From the NCBI GenBank assembly GCA_012178725.1, contig GCA_012178725.1_3030.1: a DNA stretch of 64,000 nt; one strand, written 5' to 3'. The notes beneath the pieces are model-generated. The model ran no database searches and was not told the origin of the DNA. It worked only from the letters and a program-made list of their open reading frames with translations. This document shows positions 11,168-60,312 of this stretch, in pieces; positions within the stretch are counted from its first letter, which is position 1, and each line of letters begins with the position of its first letter. Both the position numbers and the translations under genes were made by a program. This stretch comes from a phage.

Positions 11168-13147
11168 ATGACTTTATTATCTCCGGGCATTGAGCTCAAA
11201 GAAACTACGGTTCAAAGCACCGTGGTTAATAACTCTACTGGTACAGCAGCTTTGGCCGGTAAATTCCAGTGGGGTCCTGCTTTTCAGATTAAACAGGTTA
11301 CAAATGAAGTAGATTTAGTTAATACTTTTGGTCAACCAACCGCTGAAACTGCTGACTATTTTATGTCTGCGATGAATTTCTTGCAGTACGGAAATGACTT
11401 ACGAGTAGTTCGTGCTGTTGATAGAGATACCGCTAAAAACTCATCGCCAATTGCTGGTAATATTGAATACACAATTTCTACCCCAGGTAGTAACTACGCG
11501 GTTGGAGATAAAATCACGGTCAAATATGTTTCAGATGATATTGAAACTGAAGGTAAAATTACTGAAGTAGACGCAGATGGAAAAATTAAGAAAATTAATA
11601 TTCCTACTGCAAAAATTATCGCTAAAGCGAAAGAAGTTGGTGAATATCCAACACTAGGTTCTAACTGGACTGCGGAAATTTCTTCATCTTCTTCCGGTTT
11701 AGCTGCAGTAATAACTCTTGGAAAAATTATTACTGATTCCGGTATTTTATTAGCTGAAATTGAAAATGCTGAAGCTGCTATGACAGCGGTTGACTTTCAA
11801 GCAAATCTCGAAAAATACGGAATTCCAGGAGTAGTAGCTCTTTATCCAGGCGAATTAGGCGATAAAATTGAAATTGAAATCGTATCTAAAGCTGACTATG
11901 CAAAAGGAGCTTCTGCATTACTCCCAATTTATCCGGGCGGTGGTACTCGCGCATCTACTGCTAAAGCAGTGTTTGGATATGGACCACAAACTGATTCACA
12001 GTACGCTATTATAGTTCGTCGTAATGATGCTATTGTTCAAAGCGTTGTTCTTTCAACTAAGCGTGGTGAAAAAGATATTTACGATAGTAACATCTATATC
12101 GATGACTTTTTCGCAAAAGGTGGTTCAGAATATATTTTTGCAACTGCACAAAACTGGCCAGAAGGCTTCTCTGGAATTTTAACTCTGTCTGGTGGATTAT
12201 CATCAAATGCTGAAGTAACAGCAGGAGATTTGATGGAAGCTTGGGACTTCTTTGCTGACCGTGAATCCGTTGATGTTCAATTGTTTATTGCGGGTTCTTG
12301 TGCCGGTGAATCTTTAGAAACAGCATCTACTGTCCAAAAACACGTCGTTTCAATTGGGGATGCTCGCCAAGATTGCTTAGTATTGTGCTCTCCTCCGCGT
12401 GAAACTGTAGTTGGAATTCCTGTAACTCGTGCAGTAGATAATTTAGTTAACTGGAGAACTGCAGCAGGTTCATACACCGATAATAACTTTAATATCAGTT
12501 CAACCTATGCAGCAATCGACGGCAACTACAAATATCAGTATGACAAATATAATGATGTGAATCGTTGGGTTCCATTAGCAGCTGATATTGCTGGTTTATG
12601 CGCAAGAACTGATAACGTATCTCAGACTTGGATGTCTCCGGCTGGTTATAATCGTGGCCAGATTCTTAACGTTATTAAACTGGCTATTGAAACTCGCCAG
12701 GCTCAGCGCGACCGTTTATACCAAGAAGCTATCAACCCAGTAACTGGTACAGGTGGTGATGGTTACGTATTGTATGGTGATAAAACAGCTACTTCTGTTC
12801 CTTCTCCATTTGATCGTATTAACGTTCGTCGTCTGTTTAATATGTTGAAAACTAATATCGGACGTAGTTCAAAATATCGTTTGTTCGAATTAAACAATGC
12901 GTTTACTCGTTCATCATTCCGCACAGAAACTGCCCAGTACTTACAGGGAATTAAAGCTCTCGGTGGAATTTATGAATATCGTGTAGTTTGCGATACAACA
13001 AATAATACTCCGTCAGTAATTGATAGAAATGAGTTTGTTGCAACATTCTACATCCAACCGGCTCGTAGTATAAATTATATCCAACTTAATTTCGTCGCAA
13101 CTGCTACTGGTGCAGATTTTGATGAGTTAACTGGTCTTGCAGGTTAA
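11168..13147 (+). CDS. 18: Tail sheath protein gp18
   Basis: 659 aa; MTLLSPGIELKETTVQS N-terminus; size as in T4. Confidence 0.95.
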   Translation: MTLLSPGIELKETTVQSTVVNNSTGTAALAGKFQWGPAFQIKQVTNEVDLVNTFGQPTAETADYFMSAMNFLQYGNDLRVVRAVDRDTAKNSSPIAGNIEYTISTPGSNYAVGDKITVKYVSDDIETEGKITEVDADGKIKKINIPTAKIIAKAKEVGEYPTLGSNWTAEISSSSSGLAAVITLGKIITDSGILLAEIENAEAAMTAVDFQANLEKYGIPGVVALYPGELGDKIEIEIVSKADYAKGASALLPIYPGGGTRASTAKAVFGYGPQTDSQYAIIVRRNDAIVQSVVLSTKRGEKDIYDSNIYIDDFFAKGGSEYIFATAQNWPEGFSGILTLSGGLSSNAEVTAGDLMEAWDFFADRESVDVQLFIAGSCAGESLETASTVQKHVVSIGDARQDCLVLCSPPRETVVGIPVTRAVDNLVNWRTAAGSYTDNNFNISSTYAAIDGNYKYQYDKYNDVNRWVPLAADIAGLCARTDNVSQTWMSPAGYNRGQILNVIKLAIETRQAQRDRLYQEAINPVTGTGGDGYVLYGDKTATSVPSPFDRINVRRLFNMLKTNIGRSSKYRLFELNNAFTRSSFRTETAQYLQGIKALGGIYEYRVVCDTTNNTPSVIDRNEFVATFYIQPARSINYIQLNFVATATGADFDELTGLAG

Positions 13148-13185: not shown

Positions 13186-13791
13186 GTGATTATTTCTAAG
13201 TTTGTTACAATAAAACCAAGAAATCATTCAAAAATGTGGTCGACAATTCTGGGATATAAAGTATCATATCATGATACAGTATCTGTTCCAATAGAATTAA
13301 TGCCAAAGAATAGTAATAAAATAGTTGACGCTAAATGTGATTTGTGTGGTATTAAATTTAGTAGAAGCATTCAGCTTTTAAATAGAACACCCACGCATGC
13401 ATGTAGAAAATGTAGCATTAAACAAGTTGCTATTAAAAATTCGGAAGTTCAATCTGGAATAAGTAGACCATGGCAAAGAGGTGATAAACATCCTCGATGG
13501 ACTGGTAAAAGAAAAGAGTTTGCATTATATGCTAGTAGAGTTCATTCTATAACTAAGTCAGCTAAAATAAGAAAAATTTGGTCAAAATGGCCGAATGCTG
13601 ATAAAATAGGAGTGTGTGGCGTAGAAGGTGCTTACCAACTCGATCATAAAGTATCTATCAAATATGGATTTGATAATTTAATTCCGCCGGAAATTATAGC
13701 AAGCGTAAAAAATTTAGAAATAATCACTTGGGAATCTAACCGAGAAAAGTCAAAAAGAAATAGCGTAGATCTTTGGGATTTACTAGAATGA
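13186..13791 (+). CDS. Putative HNH-family (His-Me finger) homing endonuclease, free-standing; GTG start
   Basis: 201 aa ORF between genes 18 and 19; Cys pairs (CDLC, CRKC) plus LDHKVSIKYGFDNL...NLEIITWESNREK HNH-like motif; GAGGA Shine-Dalgarno 5 nt before the GTG. Confidence 0.65.
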   Translation: MIISKFVTIKPRNHSKMWSTILGYKVSYHDTVSVPIELMPKNSNKIVDAKCDLCGIKFSRSIQLLNRTPTHACRKCSIKQVAIKNSEVQSGISRPWQRGDKHPRWTGKRKEFALYASRVHSITKSAKIRKIWSKWPNADKIGVCGVEGAYQLDHKVSIKYGFDNLIPPEIIASVKNLEIITWESNREKSKRNSVDLWDLLE

Positions 13792-13898: not shown

Positions 13899-14390
13899 AT
13901 GTTTGTAGATGATGTAACACGAGCGTTTGAATCTGGTGATTTTGCTCGACCTAACTTATTCCAAGTAGAAATTTCTTATCTTGGACAAAATTTTACGTTT
14001 CAATGTAAAGCCACTGCTTTACCAGCTGGTATTGTAGAAAAAATTCCAGTCGGATTTATGAACCGTAAAATTAACGTAGCAGGCGATCGTACATTCGATG
14101 ACTGGACTGTTACAGTAATGAACGATGAAGCTCATGATGCTCGCCAGAAGTTCGTTGATTGGCAAAGCATTGCTGCAGGACAAGGAAACGAAATTACTGG
14201 TGGAAAACCTGCAGAGTATAAAAAGAGCGCTATCGTTCGTCAATATGCTCGTGACGCTAAAACAGTAACAAAAGAAATTGAAATTAAAGGTCTGTGGCCT
14301 ACTAACGTGGGTGAACTTCAATTGGATTGGGATTCAAACAATGAAATCCAAACATTTGAAGTAACTCTTGCTCTCGATTATTGGGAATAA
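13899..14390 (+). CDS. 19: Tail tube protein gp19
   Basis: 163 aa; position and size as in T4. Confidence 0.95.
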   Translation: MFVDDVTRAFESGDFARPNLFQVEISYLGQNFTFQCKATALPAGIVEKIPVGFMNRKINVAGDRTFDDWTVTVMNDEAHDARQKFVDWQSIAAGQGNEITGGKPAEYKKSAIVRQYARDAKTVTKEIEIKGLWPTNVGELQLDWDSNNEIQTFEVTLALDYWE

Positions 14391-47120: not shown

Positions 47121-47353
47121 AGTACGCCATACACCCTTTGTGCTTCAACTAATCCATCGAAATCCAGTTTAAGATGCGATATTTGATCGCCATCACCTGG
47201 ATTCACAATTACTAATACTGAACGAGGAGTTTCGGTAATAACACGAACCGATGTTTCAGGAAATCGTTCAGAAACCCTATTTACTAATTCCTGCGCAAAT
47301 AGTTTAACTTTTTCTTGGAATTCTTTAACAGTAATTGGTTTTTCACTTAGCAT
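47117..47353 (-). CDS. Hypothetical protein (cd.2 position)
   Basis: 78 aa. Confidence 0.55.
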   Translation of the reverse strand: MLSEKPITVKEFQEKVKLFAQELVNRVSERFPETSVRVITETPRSVLVIVNPGDGDQISHLKLDFDGLVEAQRVYGVL

Positions 47354-47874
47354 GTTGATCCCAGCTCCTTACTTTCAACGTTTTTAACTAATTTGACAGA
47401 AACTAATTCAGCATCTTGAGTAATCATTACCGGACCTTCTTCATACTCTTCAAGATATTCTAGAGCTTTCTTTTTAGCTTCTTCTTTCGTATCAGTTTGA
47501 GCATAGATATAAAACATACAACCAGTAATACCTACTACTTTCCACTTAATTTCTTTATCAGCTTTAATTTCAAATTTACTGACAGAATCATCTTTTTGAA
47601 CTTCTTCGAAAAAAGAATATTCTAACATATAAGCAATTGAAAATAACGGGCTAACTTTATAGGATTCGCCCATTACGTCAACAGCTTTATACCAGCAGTC
47701 ATCAATTTCGCGTTTAATGCTAATAACATTCTTTGCAGGGTCAATTTTTACTTTAAATGAATTTTCCCCAATAAACTGGGCAATTCGTTTATTAGCCCCG
47801 CAAGTTTCATTAAAAATATCTTTATATCCAGCTTTAAAGCGATAAACCTTATCTTCTTCAAACCATTCGCTCAT
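47347..47874 (-). CDS. Hypothetical protein (cd.3 position)
   Basis: 175 aa; own early promoter. Confidence 0.6.
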   Translation of the reverse strand: MSEWFEEDKVYRFKAGYKDIFNETCGANKRIAQFIGENSFKVKIDPAKNVISIKREIDDCWYKAVDVMGESYKVSPLFSIAYMLEYSFFEEVQKDDSVSKFEIKADKEIKWKVVGITGCMFYIYAQTDTKEEAKKKALEYLEEYEEGPVMITQDAELVSVKLVKNVESKELGSTC

Positions 47875-52876: not shown

Positions 52877-54046
52877 TTAAAAGTATTTTTTAAAACTCAT
52901 CATAACTTTATCATCAACATCATTATCAATCTGTGCAACAAGGTAAGATGACAGTTCTACTTCTTGTGGCGCGGATTGAACATTATCAGAATTAAGGTAT
53001 TCACGAATCCAAGGATATGGATGTTTAACCGGAGCATCGGTAATTGGGCATGGAAGATCGCACTGTTTCATACGAGATACAGTTAAGTAATCAATAAAGC
53101 TCCACATGCTATTTGTATTTAATCCAGGAACATCACCATCTTTAAATAAATGAACTGCCCAATCTTTTTCTTGGCGGTTAACTTCCATGAAAATATCAAC
53201 TGCTTCTTGTTCACACTCTTGGGCGATTTTAACCCATTCATCACCATCAGTGCCAAGCTGAAGTTGACGAATAATATATTGGGTGCCTTTAAGGTGAAGC
53301 TGCTCATCACGTGCAATGAACTTCATAATCTTGGCATTACCTTCCATGATTTCCATGTTCTTATGGAAGTTAAAGGTACACGCGAAAGATACATAAAAAC
53401 GAATAGCTTCTAAGGCATTAATAACGTGCAAACAGAGGTAAAGAGACTTCATTAAAGCACGTTTAGTACATGCAACAACTTTGCCTAACTCTTCTTTACG
53501 AAATCCTTCTGATAAAATTCCTTCATATTCTTCTTTAGCATTTTCCCATTCACGGGTTTTAATTAGAACGTCATCATAATAGCGACCGATAGATTCAGCG
53601 CGTTTCATAATAGCTTCATCTAATACAATCTCATCAAATACCTTCGATGGATCAGTATAAAGATTTCGCATGATATGTGTATATGAACGACTGTGAATAG
53701 TTTCACTAAAAGTCCATGTAGCAACCCATGTATCAAGACTTGGGTCTGAAATTAATGACATAAGTACAGCAGATGGCGCACGACCTTGAATGCTATCCAA
53801 AAGTGATTGATACTTCAGGTTATTAGTAAAAATATTTTGCTGATACTGAGGAAGCTTATTAAACTGCGCAGAATCCATCATTAAGTTTACTTCTTCAGGC
53901 CGCCAGAAAAATGACAATTGCTTTTCGGTCAAATCTTCAAAAACTTTATGGCGTTGAATATCATAACGCGCAATACCAAGACCTGAACCAAAAAACATAG
54001 GTTCTTTTAAAACATCAACTGGATTTGTATTAAAAACTGTGCTCAT
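52877..54046 (-). CDS. nrdB: Ribonucleotide reductase small subunit (aerobic, class Ia), uninterrupted
   Basis: 389 aa continuous ORF; no intron. Confidence 0.97.
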   Translation of the reverse strand: MSTVFNTNPVDVLKEPMFFGSGLGIARYDIQRHKVFEDLTEKQLSFFWRPEEVNLMMDSAQFNKLPQYQQNIFTNNLKYQSLLDSIQGRAPSAVLMSLISDPSLDTWVATWTFSETIHSRSYTHIMRNLYTDPSKVFDEIVLDEAIMKRAESIGRYYDDVLIKTREWENAKEEYEGILSEGFRKEELGKVVACTKRALMKSLYLCLHVINALEAIRFYVSFACTFNFHKNMEIMEGNAKIMKFIARDEQLHLKGTQYIIRQLQLGTDGDEWVKIAQECEQEAVDIFMEVNRQEKDWAVHLFKDGDVPGLNTNSMWSFIDYLTVSRMKQCDLPCPITDAPVKHPYPWIREYLNSDNVQSAPQEVELSSYLVAQIDNDVDDKVMMSFKKYF

Positions 54047-54099: not shown

Positions 54100-56364
54100 T
54101 CATAATTTACAGGATGAACAATCTTCAGCTTTTGGAGTTTCTATTTCATAATCATCAGTACCAGAACCATCTCGGGTATTATGATAATAGAAATTTTTTC
54201 CACCAAAGTACCAAAAATACAAAAGGTCATCAATCATTATTGACATTGGAACCTTTCCTTTTGGAAAAATCTGCGGGTCATAATATGTATTTGCTGAAGC
54301 TGATTGACATACCCATTTAAGCATAATAGCTACTTGCGTAAGATAAGGTTTATTACCTTTCTTAGCTAATTTCCATGTATAATCATAGAGGTCTATGTTA
54401 TGCTCAATATTGGGCACGACCTGATTAAAGGAGCCCTCTTTTGATTCTTTAACAGAGACTGGTCCACGTGGAGGCTCGATACCGTTTGTACTGTTAGATA
54501 CCTGACTGGACGATTCACAAGGCATCAACGCGGATAAAGTAGAATTTCTAATTCCATGCTGTTTGAGTTCAGATCGAAGTTCGTCCCAATCACACACGTA
54601 GTTGGGCGCAGCGATTTGGTCAATCTTTTTATTGTACCAGTCGATAGGTAATTCGCCTCGAGACCAACGAGTGTCTGAATAATATTCGCAAGGTCCTTTT
54701 TCTTTGGCGAGCTTAATGGATGCTTTAATGAGTCCATACTGTAATCTCTCAAATAGTTCATGTGTTAAATCGTTAGCATCTTCATAAGAAGCAAAGTTAC
54801 TTGCCAGCCAAGCTGCATAGTTGGTAACACCTACGCCAAGGTTACGACGCTTTTTAGCTTTTTCTGCTTCAGGAACTGGATATCCTTGGTAATCCAACAG
54901 ATTATCAAGAGCACGAACTTGAACTTCTGCCAATTCATTAATTTTATCTTGGTCTTGCCAGTCAAAATTATCTAATACGAATGCAGAGAGAGTACACAAT
55001 CCAATTTCAGCATCAGGACTATTCACATCATTTGTTGGAATAGCAATTTCACAGCACAAGTTACTCTGACGAATAGGTGCCTTTTCACGAATAAACGGAG
55101 TATAGTTATTCGTATTATCAATGAACTGTACATAAATCCTTGCTGTTCCTGAACGTTCAGTCATGAGCAATTCAAATAGTTCACGGGCTTTAATACGCTT
55201 TTTACGAATATTAGGGTCTTTTTCTGCTGCTTCGTATAATTCACGGAAACGGTCTTGGTCTTTAAAATAAGAATAATAAAGCTCTCCACCCATTTCATGC
55301 GGACTGAACAAAGTAATGTAATCGTTCTTTCCGAATCGTTCCATCATCAAATCATTCAGCTGAACACCATAATCCATATGACGAATTCGGTTTTCTTCTA
55401 CGCCTTTGTTATTTTTCAAAACGAGAAGATTTTCAACTTCCAAATGCCAAATAGGATAATAAGCAGTAGCAGCGCCGCCACGAATTCCACCCTGTGAACA
55501 TGATTTAACTGCAGTCTGAAAATGTTTCCAAAAAGGAATAACACCAGTATGGCGTACTTCACCCATGCCAATCTTAGAACCTTCGGCACGAATCATACCA
55601 ACGTTAATACCAATTCCAGCTCGTTTGGAAATATATTCAACAATTGAAGCAGAAGCCTTATTGATAGACTTCAGCGAATCACCTGCCTCAATAACAACAC
55701 ATGAACTAAATTGCCGAGTCGGAGTACGGCAACCAGCCATAATAGGAGTTGGCAATGAAATCTGTCGAGTAGATACTGCTTCATAAAAACGAATAACATG
55801 TTTTAATCTGTCAACAGGTTCATCTTGATGCAATGCCATTCCAATAGTCATAAATGCAAACTGCGGAGTTTCATAAATTTGACCAGTGGTTTTATCTTTA
55901 ACGAGATATTTTTCTTTTAATTGCATCGCCCCGGAATAAGTAAATTCCATATCCCGCTCGTGCTTAATTTTTGATTCTAAAAATGTAATTTCTTCTGCTG
56001 AATATTTTGACAACAATTCAGGGTCATATTTACCTTCATTTACGCAGTAAGAAATATGGTCAATAAATGAACGCGGTTCATATTGTCCGTAAACATGCTT
56101 ACGAAGAGCAAACATTAAACAGCGTGCAGCTACGTATTGATAATCAGGCTCTTCAACTGAAATAGAATTCGCAGCAGCCTTAATGACAATAGTCTGAATG
56201 TCATCAGTTGTCATTCCATCACGGAGATAAGATTTAATATTTTCATATAATTCATAAGGATCTACTGATGTTCCCTCAGCTGCCCAAGATAAAACTTTAA
56301 TAATTTTTTGTGGGTCAAAGCTCTGAGAAACACCACTACTTTTGATAACATTAATTAATTGCAT
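54100..56364 (-). CDS. nrdA: Ribonucleotide reductase large subunit (aerobic, class Ia)
   Basis: 754 aa; MQLINVIKSSGVSQSFDPQKIIKVLSWA (ATP-cone) ... CSSCKL tail. Confidence 0.97.
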   Translation of the reverse strand: MQLINVIKSSGVSQSFDPQKIIKVLSWAAEGTSVDPYELYENIKSYLRDGMTTDDIQTIVIKAAANSISVEEPDYQYVAARCLMFALRKHVYGQYEPRSFIDHISYCVNEGKYDPELLSKYSAEEITFLESKIKHERDMEFTYSGAMQLKEKYLVKDKTTGQIYETPQFAFMTIGMALHQDEPVDRLKHVIRFYEAVSTRQISLPTPIMAGCRTPTRQFSSCVVIEAGDSLKSINKASASIVEYISKRAGIGINVGMIRAEGSKIGMGEVRHTGVIPFWKHFQTAVKSCSQGGIRGGAATAYYPIWHLEVENLLVLKNNKGVEENRIRHMDYGVQLNDLMMERFGKNDYITLFSPHEMGGELYYSYFKDQDRFRELYEAAEKDPNIRKKRIKARELFELLMTERSGTARIYVQFIDNTNNYTPFIREKAPIRQSNLCCEIAIPTNDVNSPDAEIGLCTLSAFVLDNFDWQDQDKINELAEVQVRALDNLLDYQGYPVPEAEKAKKRRNLGVGVTNYAAWLASNFASYEDANDLTHELFERLQYGLIKASIKLAKEKGPCEYYSDTRWSRGELPIDWYNKKIDQIAAPNYVCDWDELRSELKQHGIRNSTLSALMPCESSSQVSNSTNGIEPPRGPVSVKESKEGSFNQVVPNIEHNIDLYDYTWKLAKKGNKPYLTQVAIMLKWVCQSASANTYYDPQIFPKGKVPMSIMIDDLLYFWYFGGKNFYYHNTRDGSGTDDYEIETPKAEDCSSCKL

Positions 56365-56680
56365 AAGTCCTCAACTTGAAAATCGTCTTTAAACAATCGG
56401 TTAACTATATGAGCTATTATATCACCATGACACGGCTTTGGTTTACATGTGCATCCTAGCCTCATTCCACGTAAAGGCTCTAAATGTGCTTTAGTTATTT
56501 CTCCGGATTTAATTCGACGTATAAATCTTTTTTGAATAATTCAATGGCAGCCTCCCGGCTGCCAGCATCTTTACCGACGTAATTTCCCCAAAATGTACCA
56601 CGGTGAATATTAACATCAAAGTCGGATTTATATTTATTCACTACCCGACATAGACGGCCCGCGCGGTGATAATTCGGCAT
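56355..56680 (-). pseudogene. Small gene split by a frameshift; CxC...PCHGD motif (DUF4326-like, from memory) in the downstream -1 frame
   Basis: Frame A (56495..56680) ends at TAA; the -1 frame stays open to 56355 and encodes ...LEPLRGMRLGCTCKPKPCHGDIIAHIVNRL...; frames meet at the A6 run (plus T6, 56528-56533). Confidence 0.55.
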
Positions 56681-56897
56681 ATTGTTTTTCCGTTAAAACA
56701 GTAATATCATAATAACAGTCAGAAGAAATTTTAATGGTGGAAACTTTATTATCAAAATACTCACGGGTCATTTTATGAGTATAATATTTTTTGCCATAAA
56801 TGATAATAGGCTGATTTGGTCCTGGAACTTCTAACTCGCTTGGGTTAGGAAGTGTAAAAAGAACTGCACCAGAAGTATCTTTAAATCGTAAAATCAT
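56634..56897 (-). CDS. Hypothetical protein (nrdA.1 position)
   Basis: 87 aa ORF downstream of td. Confidence 0.55.
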
Positions 56898-56920: not shown

Positions 56921-57780
56921 TTACACCGCCATCTTTCCTTTAATTGGCGGGTGAGATACATAGTCGTTAAGAACAAAATTATGCGGCTTTGCGAATTGAC
57001 TCAACCAAAATACCTGTGATTCTGTGTCCCATTCATCAAATTCATCTGGGAATTTTAATTGTAATTCGCATAAATCCATAGGTTCACGACGCAAAATTTC
57101 TTTACATTGTTCTACGTGATTCATATAGATATGAGTATTACCGCCAGAAAATATCAAATCTCCCGGAATAAGATTACATATCTTAGCTACAATATGAACT
57201 AACGCAGCATATGATGCAATATTAAATGGAAGACCGAGGAAAACATCTACTGATCGTTGATACCACTGAAGGTCAAGGTATCCATTACGAACATTAAATT
57301 GATAGAACATATGACAAGGTGGTAATGCCATCTGCTTGAGTTCAGTTGGATTCCATGCTGAAATAATTTGACGCCTATCATTTGGCAGTTTTTTAATACG
57401 ATCAATAACTTCTATAATTTGGTCTACACCACCAAAATCACGCCACTGTTTTCCATAAATTGGACCAAGTTCACCGCTATGGTATCCTAAATCTTTTGCT
57501 TGATTTTCGTAATTTTCATCCCAGACTGTTTTGCCTTGAATTAATGAATCATGTTGAATTAATCGCAAATCATTGACATTTGTGCTTCCTGATAAAAACC
57601 ATATTAGCTCAGCAATGCATGCATTCCAGGCGAGCTTTTTAGTTGTTACTGCAGGAAAACCTTTGGTTAAATCCCAACGCAATTTAGTACCGAACAAAGC
57701 AATTGTTCCTGTGCCCGTTCGGTCATCGGTTTCATAGCCATTTTCAAAAATGTCTTTAATTAAATCTTGGTATTGTTTCA

Positions 57781-57781
<1 letters not shown>
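56921..57781 (-). CDS. td: Thymidylate synthase, uninterrupted
   Basis: 286 aa from MKQYQDLIKDIFENGYETDDRTGTG...; continuous, no intron; in-frame upstream ATG at 57793 also possible. Confidence 0.97.
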
Positions 57782-58809
<1,028 letters not shown>

Positions 58810-59495: not shown

Positions 59496-59873
59496 TTACT
59501 GAATATCAAAAGTTGCTTTAATCAGTGCAATGACTTCTGCCGCATTTTTATGATTTACCTGTACATGAATGGTTTGAGTATCATCAACATCATCAGAAGC
59601 ATCGCTATCAACTTCCAGGAAGTGACAGAATTCCCATTCAGCGAGTTCAAAGTACTCATCATCATCACTCATACTATTCAGGATGGTGCCATCTTTCATT
59701 TCAACTTTTTCAACAAAATAATCACCTTCAATATAACACATATCCAGGACTTTGAAGGAACTGCCATGTTGTTCCATCAACTTGACCATGCACGAATTAG
59801 CATCAGGATTACCAGCGATGAATCGTTTTTTTGCAGCAGGGTCTAATACGTAAAATTTACCAGTTTCCATCAT
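59496..59873 (-). CDS. Hypothetical protein, paralog of 59932..60312
   Basis: 125 aa; shares the NS.VK..E.GG.F.V...Y..V..IE...G and EF.CF.E ... VDE.I.L...TF pattern with the upstream ORF. Confidence 0.6.
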   Translation of the reverse strand: MMETGKFYVLDPAAKKRFIAGNPDANSCMVKLMEQHGSSFKVLDMCYIEGDYFVEKVEMKDGTILNSMSDDDEYFELAEWEFCHFLEVDSDASDDVDDTQTIHVQVNHKNAAEVIALIKATFDIQ

Positions 59874-59901
59874 TTTAATTTCCTCATGTAGTTGATAAGG
59901 C

Positions 59902-59931
59902 TATAGTATCATTACCATAGCCCGTTGTAAA
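59902..59931 (-). promoter_or_regulatory. Early promoter GTTTAC-N18-TGaTACTAT
   Basis: -35 at 59926-59931. Confidence 0.5.
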
Positions 59932-60312
59932 CTACTTTTTGAAAGTTTTTCGCAAAAGTTCAATGATTTCATCTACATTGTTTTCGTCAACAATGCAGTG
60001 AATTTTTGTTACGCCAGAAACCGGGTCTTTGACTTCATCTTTTTCAGAAGTCGGTTCTTTATACTCACGAAAACAATGAAATTCGTCTTCGCAAATTTCT
60101 AAAAGTCTATCTTTGAGGTAAAAATGTTTTCCATTTGCGCATTCAATGTGTTTTACTGCTTTATATCCATTAGCGACGGAAACTTCTTTAACTTCAAACC
60201 ATCCGCCATTCTCTCGAATGGCTTTAACTATTGATGAATTAGAACGTGGGCTATAATTAATAAATGTATCAATAAGTCTTGGAACAAGTTCATACTTTCT
60301 ACCAGTATACAT
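59932..60312 (-). CDS. Hypothetical protein, paralog of 59496..59873
   Basis: 126 aa. Confidence 0.6.
   Translation of the reverse strand: MYTGRKYELVPRLIDTFINYSPRSNSSIVKAIRENGGWFEVKEVSVANGYKAVKHIECANGKHFYLKDRLLEICEDEFHCFREYKEPTSEKDEVKDPVSGVTKIHCIVDENNVDEIIELLRKTFKK

Follow-up and report, generated by a model that had tools for sequence, protein, structure and literature searches.

A disrupted allele of the DUF4326 gene nrdA.1 in a T4-like phage genome segment

Introduction

Directly upstream of nrdA, in a 64,000-nucleotide stretch of phage DNA (the window), two small open reading frames lie in different frames. A sequence-only reading had proposed that they are two halves of one DUF4326 gene, split at an A6 homopolymer by a sequencing error, a recent inactivating mutation or expression through -1 ribosomal or transcriptional slippage. 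The locus thus raises the question of whether a full-length protein is still made across the frames, or whether the gene is disrupted, in the phage or in the deposited sequence. Here we show that the window, a T4-like (Tequatrovirus) genome segment, carries a disrupted allele of nrdA.1, and that this is an ordinary knockout allele or a base-calling error, not programmed frameshifting.

Results

The two frames encode consecutive halves of nrdA.1

Both pieces are real, and jointly they constitute the orthologue of T4 nrdA.1 (Pfam DUF4326). The 61-codon ORF and its TAA stop are present exactly as first quoted, and translation confirmed that the second frame is open as far as 56355, reading RFIRRIKSGEITKAHLEPLRGMRLGCTCKPKPCHGDIIAHIVNRLFKDDFQVEDLCN to a stop at 56357-56355; upstream it is open only to 56540, with a TGA at 56543-56541 (Table 1). 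In Pfam profile searches the 5' piece scored 30.4 bits against profile positions 1-47 of DUF4326 (PF14216; 82 positions, gathering score 25 bits). The 3' piece, the C-terminal segment, also exceeded the gathering score, at 42.2 bits over positions 49-81, while the intact NrdA.1 protein of phage CM8 scored 78.7 bits over positions 1-81. Because the pieces match consecutive segments of the profile, they are two halves of one domain, as had been suggested. The 3' remnant holds ancestral codons 53-108 (FIRRIKSG...CHGD...EDLCN) and the stop, and is identical to T6 and CM8 at the protein level.

The homologues are single ORFs and not naturally two genes. In the annotation of T4, T6, CM8 and BW-1, nrdA.1 is one 327-nt CDS of 108 codons, one fewer than the approximately 109 aa first estimated, and at least 80% of the NrdA.1 protein is covered in 1393 of the 1778 phage records with a tblastn match. 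The intact form also matches PHROG 464 at 4e-49, and every structural neighbour in BFVD is a DUF4326 protein. By blastn, the window gene is 99.4% identical to CM8 nrdA.1 over 327 nt with a single 1-nt gap. It thus shares position and whole-length identity with T4 nrdA.1 and lacks the single uninterrupted 108-codon ORF; the window gene is a disrupted allele of nrdA.1.

Table 1 Features of the nrdA.1 locus in the window
Feature	Coordinates	Strand	Description and evidence
nrdA, ribonucleotide reductase large subunit	54100..56364	-	Intact, 754 aa; ORF list, CM8 match
nrdA.1 3' remnant, -1 frame	56355..56525	-	Translation, DUF4326 match, alignment
nrdA.1 5' fragment	56495..56680	-	61-codon ORF, stop TAA; ORF list, DUF4326 match, alignment to CM8/T6
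Region with both frames open	56498..56540	-	43 nt; frame translations, RNA folds
Lesion, coding-strand T3 run (T4 in intact relatives)	56523..56525	-	GAT TTT ATA -> GAT TTA TA; alignments
A6 run, Lys50-Lys51 codons	56528..56533	-	Intact in the window; A7 and A5 in other public T-even genomes
nrdA.2 (DUF5496)	56634..56897	-	Intact, 87 aa; Pfam 184 bits, 100% identical to CM8 protein

The missing base is a T beside the A6 run

The window is one T short in a T4 run, such that GATTTTATA becomes GATTTATA, and this T-run deletion is the sole indel relative to CM8 nrdA.1 in the blastn alignment. The coding-strand A6 run does lie at 56533-56528; placing the split there, however, does not hold, as the CM8, T6 and BW-1 genes all contain A6 and the single alignment gap falls in the adjoining T-run, 3 nt downstream. 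A frameshift in the A6 run itself is therefore ruled out. This run, which is the longer of the two, is called correctly in the window. The proposal that one extra A restores the ORF is arithmetically correct, giving KKRFIRR, but ancestrally this stretch reads KKDFIRR.

The genes on either side are intact. The order on the minus strand, frd - td - nrdA.2 - [nrdA.1] - nrdA - nrdB, is the same as annotated in T4, T6 and CM8, with nrdA.2 overlapping the nrdA.1 start by 47 nt. As first described, nrdA.1 is directly upstream of nrdA; the nrdA ATG, preceded by GAGGA, overlaps its ancestral 3' end. Occlusion of the nrdA ribosome-binding site was considered and rejected, the region folding no more stably than shuffled sequence (z = +1.57). 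Expression of nrdA should be unaffected by the nrdA.1 lesion, because its own Shine-Dalgarno sequence lies in an unstructured region. A promoter and terminator scan of the region gave counts at or below shuffle expectation.

A genuine deletion or a base-calling error

We lean towards a genuine and very recent one-base deletion, T4 to T3 at 56525-56523, that would make nrdA.1 a null allele and would lie in the phage DNA rather than in the assembly alone. It would likely have arisen by replication slippage in the low-complexity tract AAAAAAGATTTT. The main competing reading, which we consider less probable but still a serious contender, is that nrdA.1 is intact in the phage and that the T is absent only from the deposited sequence, through a consensus or base-calling error at a homopolymer. 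The distribution of the allele fits such an error, since a single miscall would also look unique. When 81 nt were compared by megablast with 50,697 phage records, none of the 492 related records had the T3 allele and 404 contained the exact intact tract; the same comparison with E. coli genomes did not find the allele either. Likewise, an exact 22-mer search of IMG/VR returned no contig with the T3 allele versus five with the intact tract, and an exact-product look-up turned up no recorded protein identical to the 61-aa product. Apart from the lesion the gene is free of decay, and the protein encoded there matches T6 and CM8 exactly, which would be expected of an error and of a very recent mutation alike. 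Moreover, several other deposited genomes differ by 1 nt in the homopolymer-rich tract that contains the lesion, a pattern to which a technical hot spot could have contributed.

Against an error stands the quality of the surrounding sequence. A tblastn survey with the CM8 proteins found matches for 83 of 86 in the window, and nrdA.1 alone was split between frames in 64 kb of AT-rich, homopolymer-rich DNA; the assembly is thus not generally error-prone. The two other low-coverage rows of this survey were gp9, which is cut by the window start, and gp24, read through a match to its gp23 paralogue. An assembly ridden with errors throughout was accordingly ruled out, no other split gene having been found, and the indels in the raw blastn list were all either compensated, in divergent patches, or intergenic. 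In addition, the run hit by the lesion is only 4 nt long and the adjacent 6-nt run is correct.

Comparison with other phages also argues against a purely technical origin. Indels recur in the 12-nt tract among public T-even genomes. An A7 allele occurs in 16 phage records representing at least three haplotypes (the phages include Lutter, CHD2BS1, Ec_MI-02, S2_01 and the EC.W series), an A5 allele in phage PD112 and the MAG OP030805.1, and other nrdA.1 frameshifts in HY03 and ECO07P4. At least one of these frameshift lineages bears a second, non-homopolymer lesion: S2_01/EC.W combines A7 with a CGA->TGA nonsense change at ancestral codon 56. The A7 genome of CHD2BS1, for one, is otherwise clean: of its 50 matched genes nrdA.1 alone is frame-split, and td is interrupted only by its intron. 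From the second lesion and the clean A7 genome it follows that real frameshift alleles of nrdA.1 exist. The added nonsense codon in an A7 lineage further indicates that nrdA.1 appears dispensable, and a genuine deletion in the window phage would be tolerated if nrdA.1 is an accessory gene, lost by frameshift in other T-even lineages too.

The locus lacks the features of a recoding site

Could the full-length protein still be made, by leaky or programmed -1 ribosomal frameshifting or by transcriptional slippage on the A6 run? We regard this as very improbable. Only within the region where both frames are open (Table 1) could a -1 shift yield a full-length product, and a shift anywhere within 56540-56498 would give a 108-aa protein with one residue changed (KK-R-FIRR instead of the ancestral KK-D-FIRR); full-length NrdA.1 contains peptides near its C-terminus such as LGCTCKPKPCHGDIIAHIVNR. 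Neither an X_XXZ_ZZN heptamer in phase nor significant structure occurs in this region. Read in the zero frame, the sequence is TTC_AAA_AAA_GAT, which makes C_AAA_AAA the in-phase heptamer, and only an A_AA.A tetramer is present, formed by the second AAA codon and the A before it. In E. coli, A_AA.A is the weakest of six responsive motifs, and tetramers without a pseudoknot shift near background, at 0.147% versus 0.112% (PMC4066793).

The 81 nt downstream fold at -11.3 kcal/mol (z = -0.5) and the wider region at z = -1.5, neither better than shuffles. A Shine-Dalgarno-like GGGAGG does lie upstream of the A-run, but at 17 nt, farther than the approximately 10 nt of the dnaX stimulator, and within a hairpin that all intact relatives share. 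Efficient RNA-polymerase slippage in bacteria typically involves runs of about nine or more A/T; the A6 run is shorter, and in intact relatives it encodes the normal in-frame Lys-Lys. The frameshift is also not conserved, nearly all homologues being single ORFs and the T3 allele unique, and an A7 lineage has gained a stop codon in the ancestral frame, which speaks against any maintenance of the downstream frame after a shift. Thus, the locus combines neither a conserved two-frame arrangement, nor a slippery heptamer, nor a downstream structure or correctly spaced Shine-Dalgarno-like element, and the slippage on the A-run offered in the sequence-only reading is unsupported.

The tract could in principle act as a contingency (phase-variable) switch, in which frequent, reversible 1-nt slippage (A5/A6/A7, T3/T4) would turn a putative counter-defence enzyme that processes ADP-ribose derivatives off and on within the phage population, with residual A-run slippage perhaps expressing the "off" alleles; we hold this to be a long shot.

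The truncated product lacks the conserved Cys/His cluster

If the deletion is genuine, translation would pass native residue 52, add nine wrong residues and stop at 56497-56495. The 61-codon ORF encodes native residues 1-52 (MPNY...ELFKKD), followed by nine out-of-frame residues (LYVELNPEK) and the TAA. In an alignment of 114 sequences, six of the nine invariant columns (C77, C79, P81, C84, H85 and V93) fall after the break. The 61-aa product lacks the C77-x-C79-x-P81-x-x-C84-H85 cluster, which is encoded within 56355-56525, out of the start-codon frame; the DUF4326 Cys/His signature (C-x-C-x-P-x-x-C-H-G-D) is hence missing from the translated protein. In an AF2 model built from the 114 sequences (pLDDT 92; a model from an earlier 19-sequence alignment reached pLDDT 66 and was set aside), the break occurs inside helix 42-59, and strand 74-77 and helix 85-96 are removed. 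Judged from conservation and this predicted structure, the truncated product is almost certainly inactive, and the allele would be null because the second half of a single domain, with its invariant cluster, is missing. That the two pieces are separate, independently translated small genes is the least credible reading of all: an internal ATG (56465) in the 3' piece opens a 36-aa ORF, but it would begin at residue 73, inside the domain. The pieces line up with successive halves of one 82-position Pfam domain, the AF2 model folds them into one compact unit, and intact homologues encode them as a single ORF.

Discussion

Our data favour a disrupted nrdA.1 gene, and annotation should merge the two small ORFs into one such (DUF4326) gene, or the base call be checked; neither a pair of hypothetical proteins nor a recoding site should be annotated here. 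A possible function is suggested by domain fusions, from which DUF4326 has been proposed to be a rhodanese-phosphatase-like enzyme that acts on phosphates of ADP-ribose derivatives (PMC9503650, PMC7824862). A PDB sequence search with NrdA.1 gave no significant match, Foldseek of the NrdA.1 model against the PDB found nothing, and the literature under the name nrdA.1 yielded incidental mentions with no functional data. A gene tied by domain-fusion analysis to NAD+/ADP-ribose conflict systems is one that natural T-even phages repeatedly inactivate by 1-nt indels in one short tract. The natural knockouts (the window phage, the A7 phages and PD112), compared with intact relatives, could reveal a DUF4326 phenotype.

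Set beside known recoding sites, the nrdA.1 locus of the window resembles the dnaX A_AAA_AAG and IS3/IS911 -1 sites of E. coli and its IS elements in having an A-run for Lys-Lys and an overlapping -1 frame that would extend the protein. Unlike these sites, it lacks a heptamer in phase, a stem-loop or pseudoknot downstream and a conserved two-frame arrangement, and its upstream Shine-Dalgarno-like element is at the wrong spacing relative to dnaX-type sites. The A7 and A5 alleles of other Tequatroviruses are parallels as well, being single-base indels in the same tract that truncate nrdA.1 at about the same residue, although they alter the A-run (A6 to A7 or A5) whereas the window allele alters the T-run (T4 to T3). 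Among the closest counterparts are T4 nrdA.1 itself (NP_049846.1, T4p235) and its T6 and CM8 orthologues. The window gene likewise sits between nrdA.2 and nrdA and overlaps both neighbours in the same way, and its nucleotide identity to the CM8, T6 and BW-1 genes is approximately 98-99.4%. The T4, T6 and CM8 proteins are 108 aa and that of the window allele, with one T fewer after the Lys-Lys codons, is 61 aa; with the missing T put back, the window NrdA.1 protein is identical to those of T6 and CM8.

Site and nature of the nrdA.1 lesion

In the window nrdA.1, a known T-even gene that is not essential, is present as an ordinary allele with one base deleted. The sequence-only reading, which proposed a small gene upstream of nrdA frameshifted at an A6 run, is supported in its factual core but not in its placement of the lesion or its appeal to recoding. 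The locus lies in the T-even nucleotide-metabolism cluster on the minus strand, and the 61-aa ORF and its stop codon were recovered as quoted from the window sequence and the ORF list. A second frame, IIQKRFIRRIKSG...CHGDIIAHIVNRLFKDDFQVEDLCN followed by a stop, runs to 56355 and is closed on its upstream side by a TGA, which confines the overlap of the frames to 56540-56498. The coding strand reads A6, then G, A and a run of three T's.

Features of the window discussed in the text
Feature	Coordinates	Strand	Basis or remark
CM8_00233 region	59500-59940		
frd	57984-58595	-	ORF list
td-frd interval	57781-57987	-	68-aa ORF
td	56921-57793	-	ORF list
nrdA.2, 87-aa ORF	56634-56897	-	Pfam DUF5496
61-aa ORF, 5' piece of nrdA.1	56495-56680	-	TAA stop at 56497-56495
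7-bp perfect hairpin GGCAGCC-GGGA-GGCTGCC	56563-56546	-	codons G-S-R-E-A-A within nrdA.1
TGA closing second frame	56543-56541	-	
A6 run	56533-56528	-	
T3 run	56525-56523	-	
nrdA	54100-56364	-	ORF list; ATG at 56364-56362
nrdB	52877-54046	-	ORF list
175-aa acidic ORF	47347-47874	-	
201-aa ORF	13186-13791	+	

A 651-nt query around the locus matched 514 phage records, nearly all Tequatroviruses (490/514 over at least 80% of the query length). Shigella phage CM8 gave the best match (99.5%), and the majority of the matches listed cover 652 nt, a single nucleotide beyond the query length. In each of CM8, T6, BW-1 and T4 a single 327-nt CDS is annotated at the locus (nrdA.1 in T4, T6 and CM8; 'DUF4326 domain-containing protein' in BW-1), as expected if both pieces come from a single gene. 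The A6 run, where the split had been placed, is common to CM8, T6 and BW-1, and the sole alignment gap falls in the run after it, where the relatives read GATTTTATA and the window GATTTATA; a change in the A-run is thereby ruled out. By blastn, CM8 nrdA.1 differs from the window by one deletion, without any further indel. The extra A proposed earlier does close the frame but gives KK-R-FIRR, whereas the ancestor has KK-D-FIRR (...ELFKK-D-FIRRIKSG...). By the gap position and this ancestral reading, the lesion is a deletion that shortened a run of four T's to three.

Mutation or base-call error

None of the 492 phage records matched by an 81-nt query with the lesion at its centre was exact, the best of the matches listed carrying one 1-nt gap each (98.8% identity); with the fourth T restored, the stretch was exact in 404 of the 492. 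A 22-mer with the three-T run had no match in IMG/VR, versus five for the four-T form. An exact-product look-up returned no gene with the identical 61-aa product, E. coli genomes gave no match to the 81-nt query, and over the 14 kb around the locus no phage-collection record exceeds about 95% identity overall.

To assess the surrounding sequence, 88 annotated CM8 CDSs from the syntenic 67 kb were translated and compared with the window by tblastn. Matches were found for 83, in a single frame and over at least 94% of their length save for the nrdA.1, gp9 and gp24 rows. The gp9 alignment is short because the window start truncates the gene; the gp24 row is a gp23 paralogue HSP, picked as the longest, and gp24's own alignment lies outside the count. 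In the nucleotide comparison, indels of a length not divisible by three either compensate each other in pairs within divergent patches or are intergenic, and the longer A6 run adjoining the lesion is correct. On these observations the window is not strewn with homopolymer errors. We lean towards a real mutation; that the missing T is a single base-call error is a serious possibility.

Programmed recoding

The suggested -1 ribosomal or transcriptional slippage on the A-run lacks conservation, a heptamer and downstream structure. The two-frame arrangement is not conserved (0/492 records exact, 404/492 intact), and the in-phase sequence TTC_AAA_AAA_GAT provides C_AAA_AAA and no X_XXZ_ZZN heptamer, leaving an A_AA.A tetramer as the remaining slippery element. 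Tetramers lacking a pseudoknot average 0.147% in E. coli, against a background of 0.112%, and A_AA.A is the weakest of six responsive motifs with a strong pseudoknot (PMC4066793). Folding of the 81 nt that follow the A-run is no more stable than that of shuffled sequence (z = -0.5), and the wider 161-nt region gives z = -1.5. The only strong local element is the 7-bp hairpin, which lies upstream of the A-run, with its GGGAGG 17 nt away, and is kept in intact relatives, CM8 differing only in the loop. Efficient bacterial RNA polymerase slippage needs runs well above six A's. Trace read-through may occur, and its product would be close to wild type (D52R, or, for a shift on the T-run, F53L). Nothing indicates selection for it or significance, and we hold expression of the pieces by -1 frameshifting or slippage to be highly improbable.

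Consequences for the protein and for nrdA

In Pfam searches the 5' piece matches DUF4326 profile positions 1-47 (30.4 bits) and the 3' remnant positions 49-81 (42.2 bits), both above the gathering score of 25 bits; the intact homologue in CM8 aligns to positions 1-81 without a break (78.7 bits). The DUF4326 resemblance put forward in the sequence-only reading was thus correct. Since the pieces fall on consecutive profile segments, they are two halves of one domain, and their being two independent genes is barely conceivable.

An AlphaFold2 model of nrdA.1, built from a 114-sequence alignment, is a confident single domain (pLDDT 92, pTM 0.84) with strand 12-15, helix 42-59, helix 64-70, strand 74-77 and helix 85-96. 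The break lies inside helix 42-59 and everything beyond it is lost, including the Cys/His cluster. Nine alignment columns are invariant (D22, R27, G32, C77, C79, P81, C84, H85 and V93), six of them after residue 52. From the model, the 61-aa product would be very unlikely to fold or function. In virus-host conflicts, DUF4326 has been suggested to act as a rhodanese-phosphatase-like enzyme on the phosphates of ADP-ribose derivatives (PMC9503650, PMC7824862). The literature records no experiment on the family, and nrdA.1 is named only in passing, in two papers. Neither a PDB sequence search with the protein nor a Foldseek search of the model against the PDB returned anything significant, and the matches of a BFVD structure search were all further DUF4326 proteins, a number of which carry fused DUF2493, NADAR or tyrosine-phosphatase domains.

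The nrdA ATG overlaps the ancestral 3' end of nrdA.1, so termination-reinitiation coupling would be lost in the three-T allele. A polar effect on nrdA is not expected, given the GAGGA 5' of its ATG and a start region no more structured than shuffled sequence (z = +1.57).

Other broken nrdA.1 alleles

The CM8 nrdA.1 protein matched 1778 phage records by tblastn, 1393 with at least 80% coverage. Two of the close relatives sampled gave the match in two pieces, and broken alleles were collected from these and similar records. An A6 to A7 allele is present in CHD2BS1, S2_01, EC.W14-2 and Ec_MI-02. The A7 query was exact in 10 records (Lutter in GenBank and RefSeq copies, CHD2BS1, G3G6, G3G7, PM105, PM123, PM136, PM133 and Ec_MI-02) and aligned along all 83 nt, apart from one SNP, in six more (five EC.W phages and S2_01), giving 16 phage records (related loci L011 and L014-L016). 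An A6 to A5 allele occurs in phage PD112 (two record copies) and MAG OP030805.1 (related locus L013). Independent frameshifts elsewhere in nrdA.1 lie near codon 33 in HY03 (locus L012) and near codon 94 in ECO07P4 (protein P0033), and the gene-caller products P0098, around the GSRE codons, and P0107 reflect further shifted alleles. Gene callers render such alleles as odd 61-109-aa products.

Once the extra A is removed in silico, the A7 alleles resolve into three or more haplotypes. That of S2_01/EC.W carries a further lesion, a CGA to TGA stop at ancestral codon 56, and at least one nrdA.1 lineage is a true decaying pseudogene. CHD2BS1 is otherwise clean: nrdA.1 is the sole frame-split gene among 50 matched CM8 proteins, its td being split only by its intron. 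Because A7 and A5 alleles occur in several genomes, 1-nt indels recur in the 12-nt tract AAAAAAGATTTT across public Tequatrovirus genomes. Loss of nrdA.1 is evidently tolerated.

Gene content relative to T4 and CM8

Unlike in T4, td (a contiguous 286-aa match) and nrdB (389 aa) are intron-less in the window, and nrdA and nrdB are separated by a 53-nt spacer without mobE or nrdB.1. Between gp18 (tail sheath, ending at 13147) and gp19 (tail tube, starting at 13899) lies a 201-aa ORF with a Cys-rich N-terminal part and no counterpart at the equivalent place in CM8, possibly a free-standing homing endonuclease insertion. The 175-aa acidic ORF sits in a segment of ~515 nt without counterpart in the aligned CM8 region. 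The td-frd interval has a 68-aa ORF in place of the unrelated 115-aa gene of CM8, for which tblastn gave no match, and CM8_00233 (86 aa) has no counterpart in the window. The differences in the frd-td region are typical T-even mosaicism.
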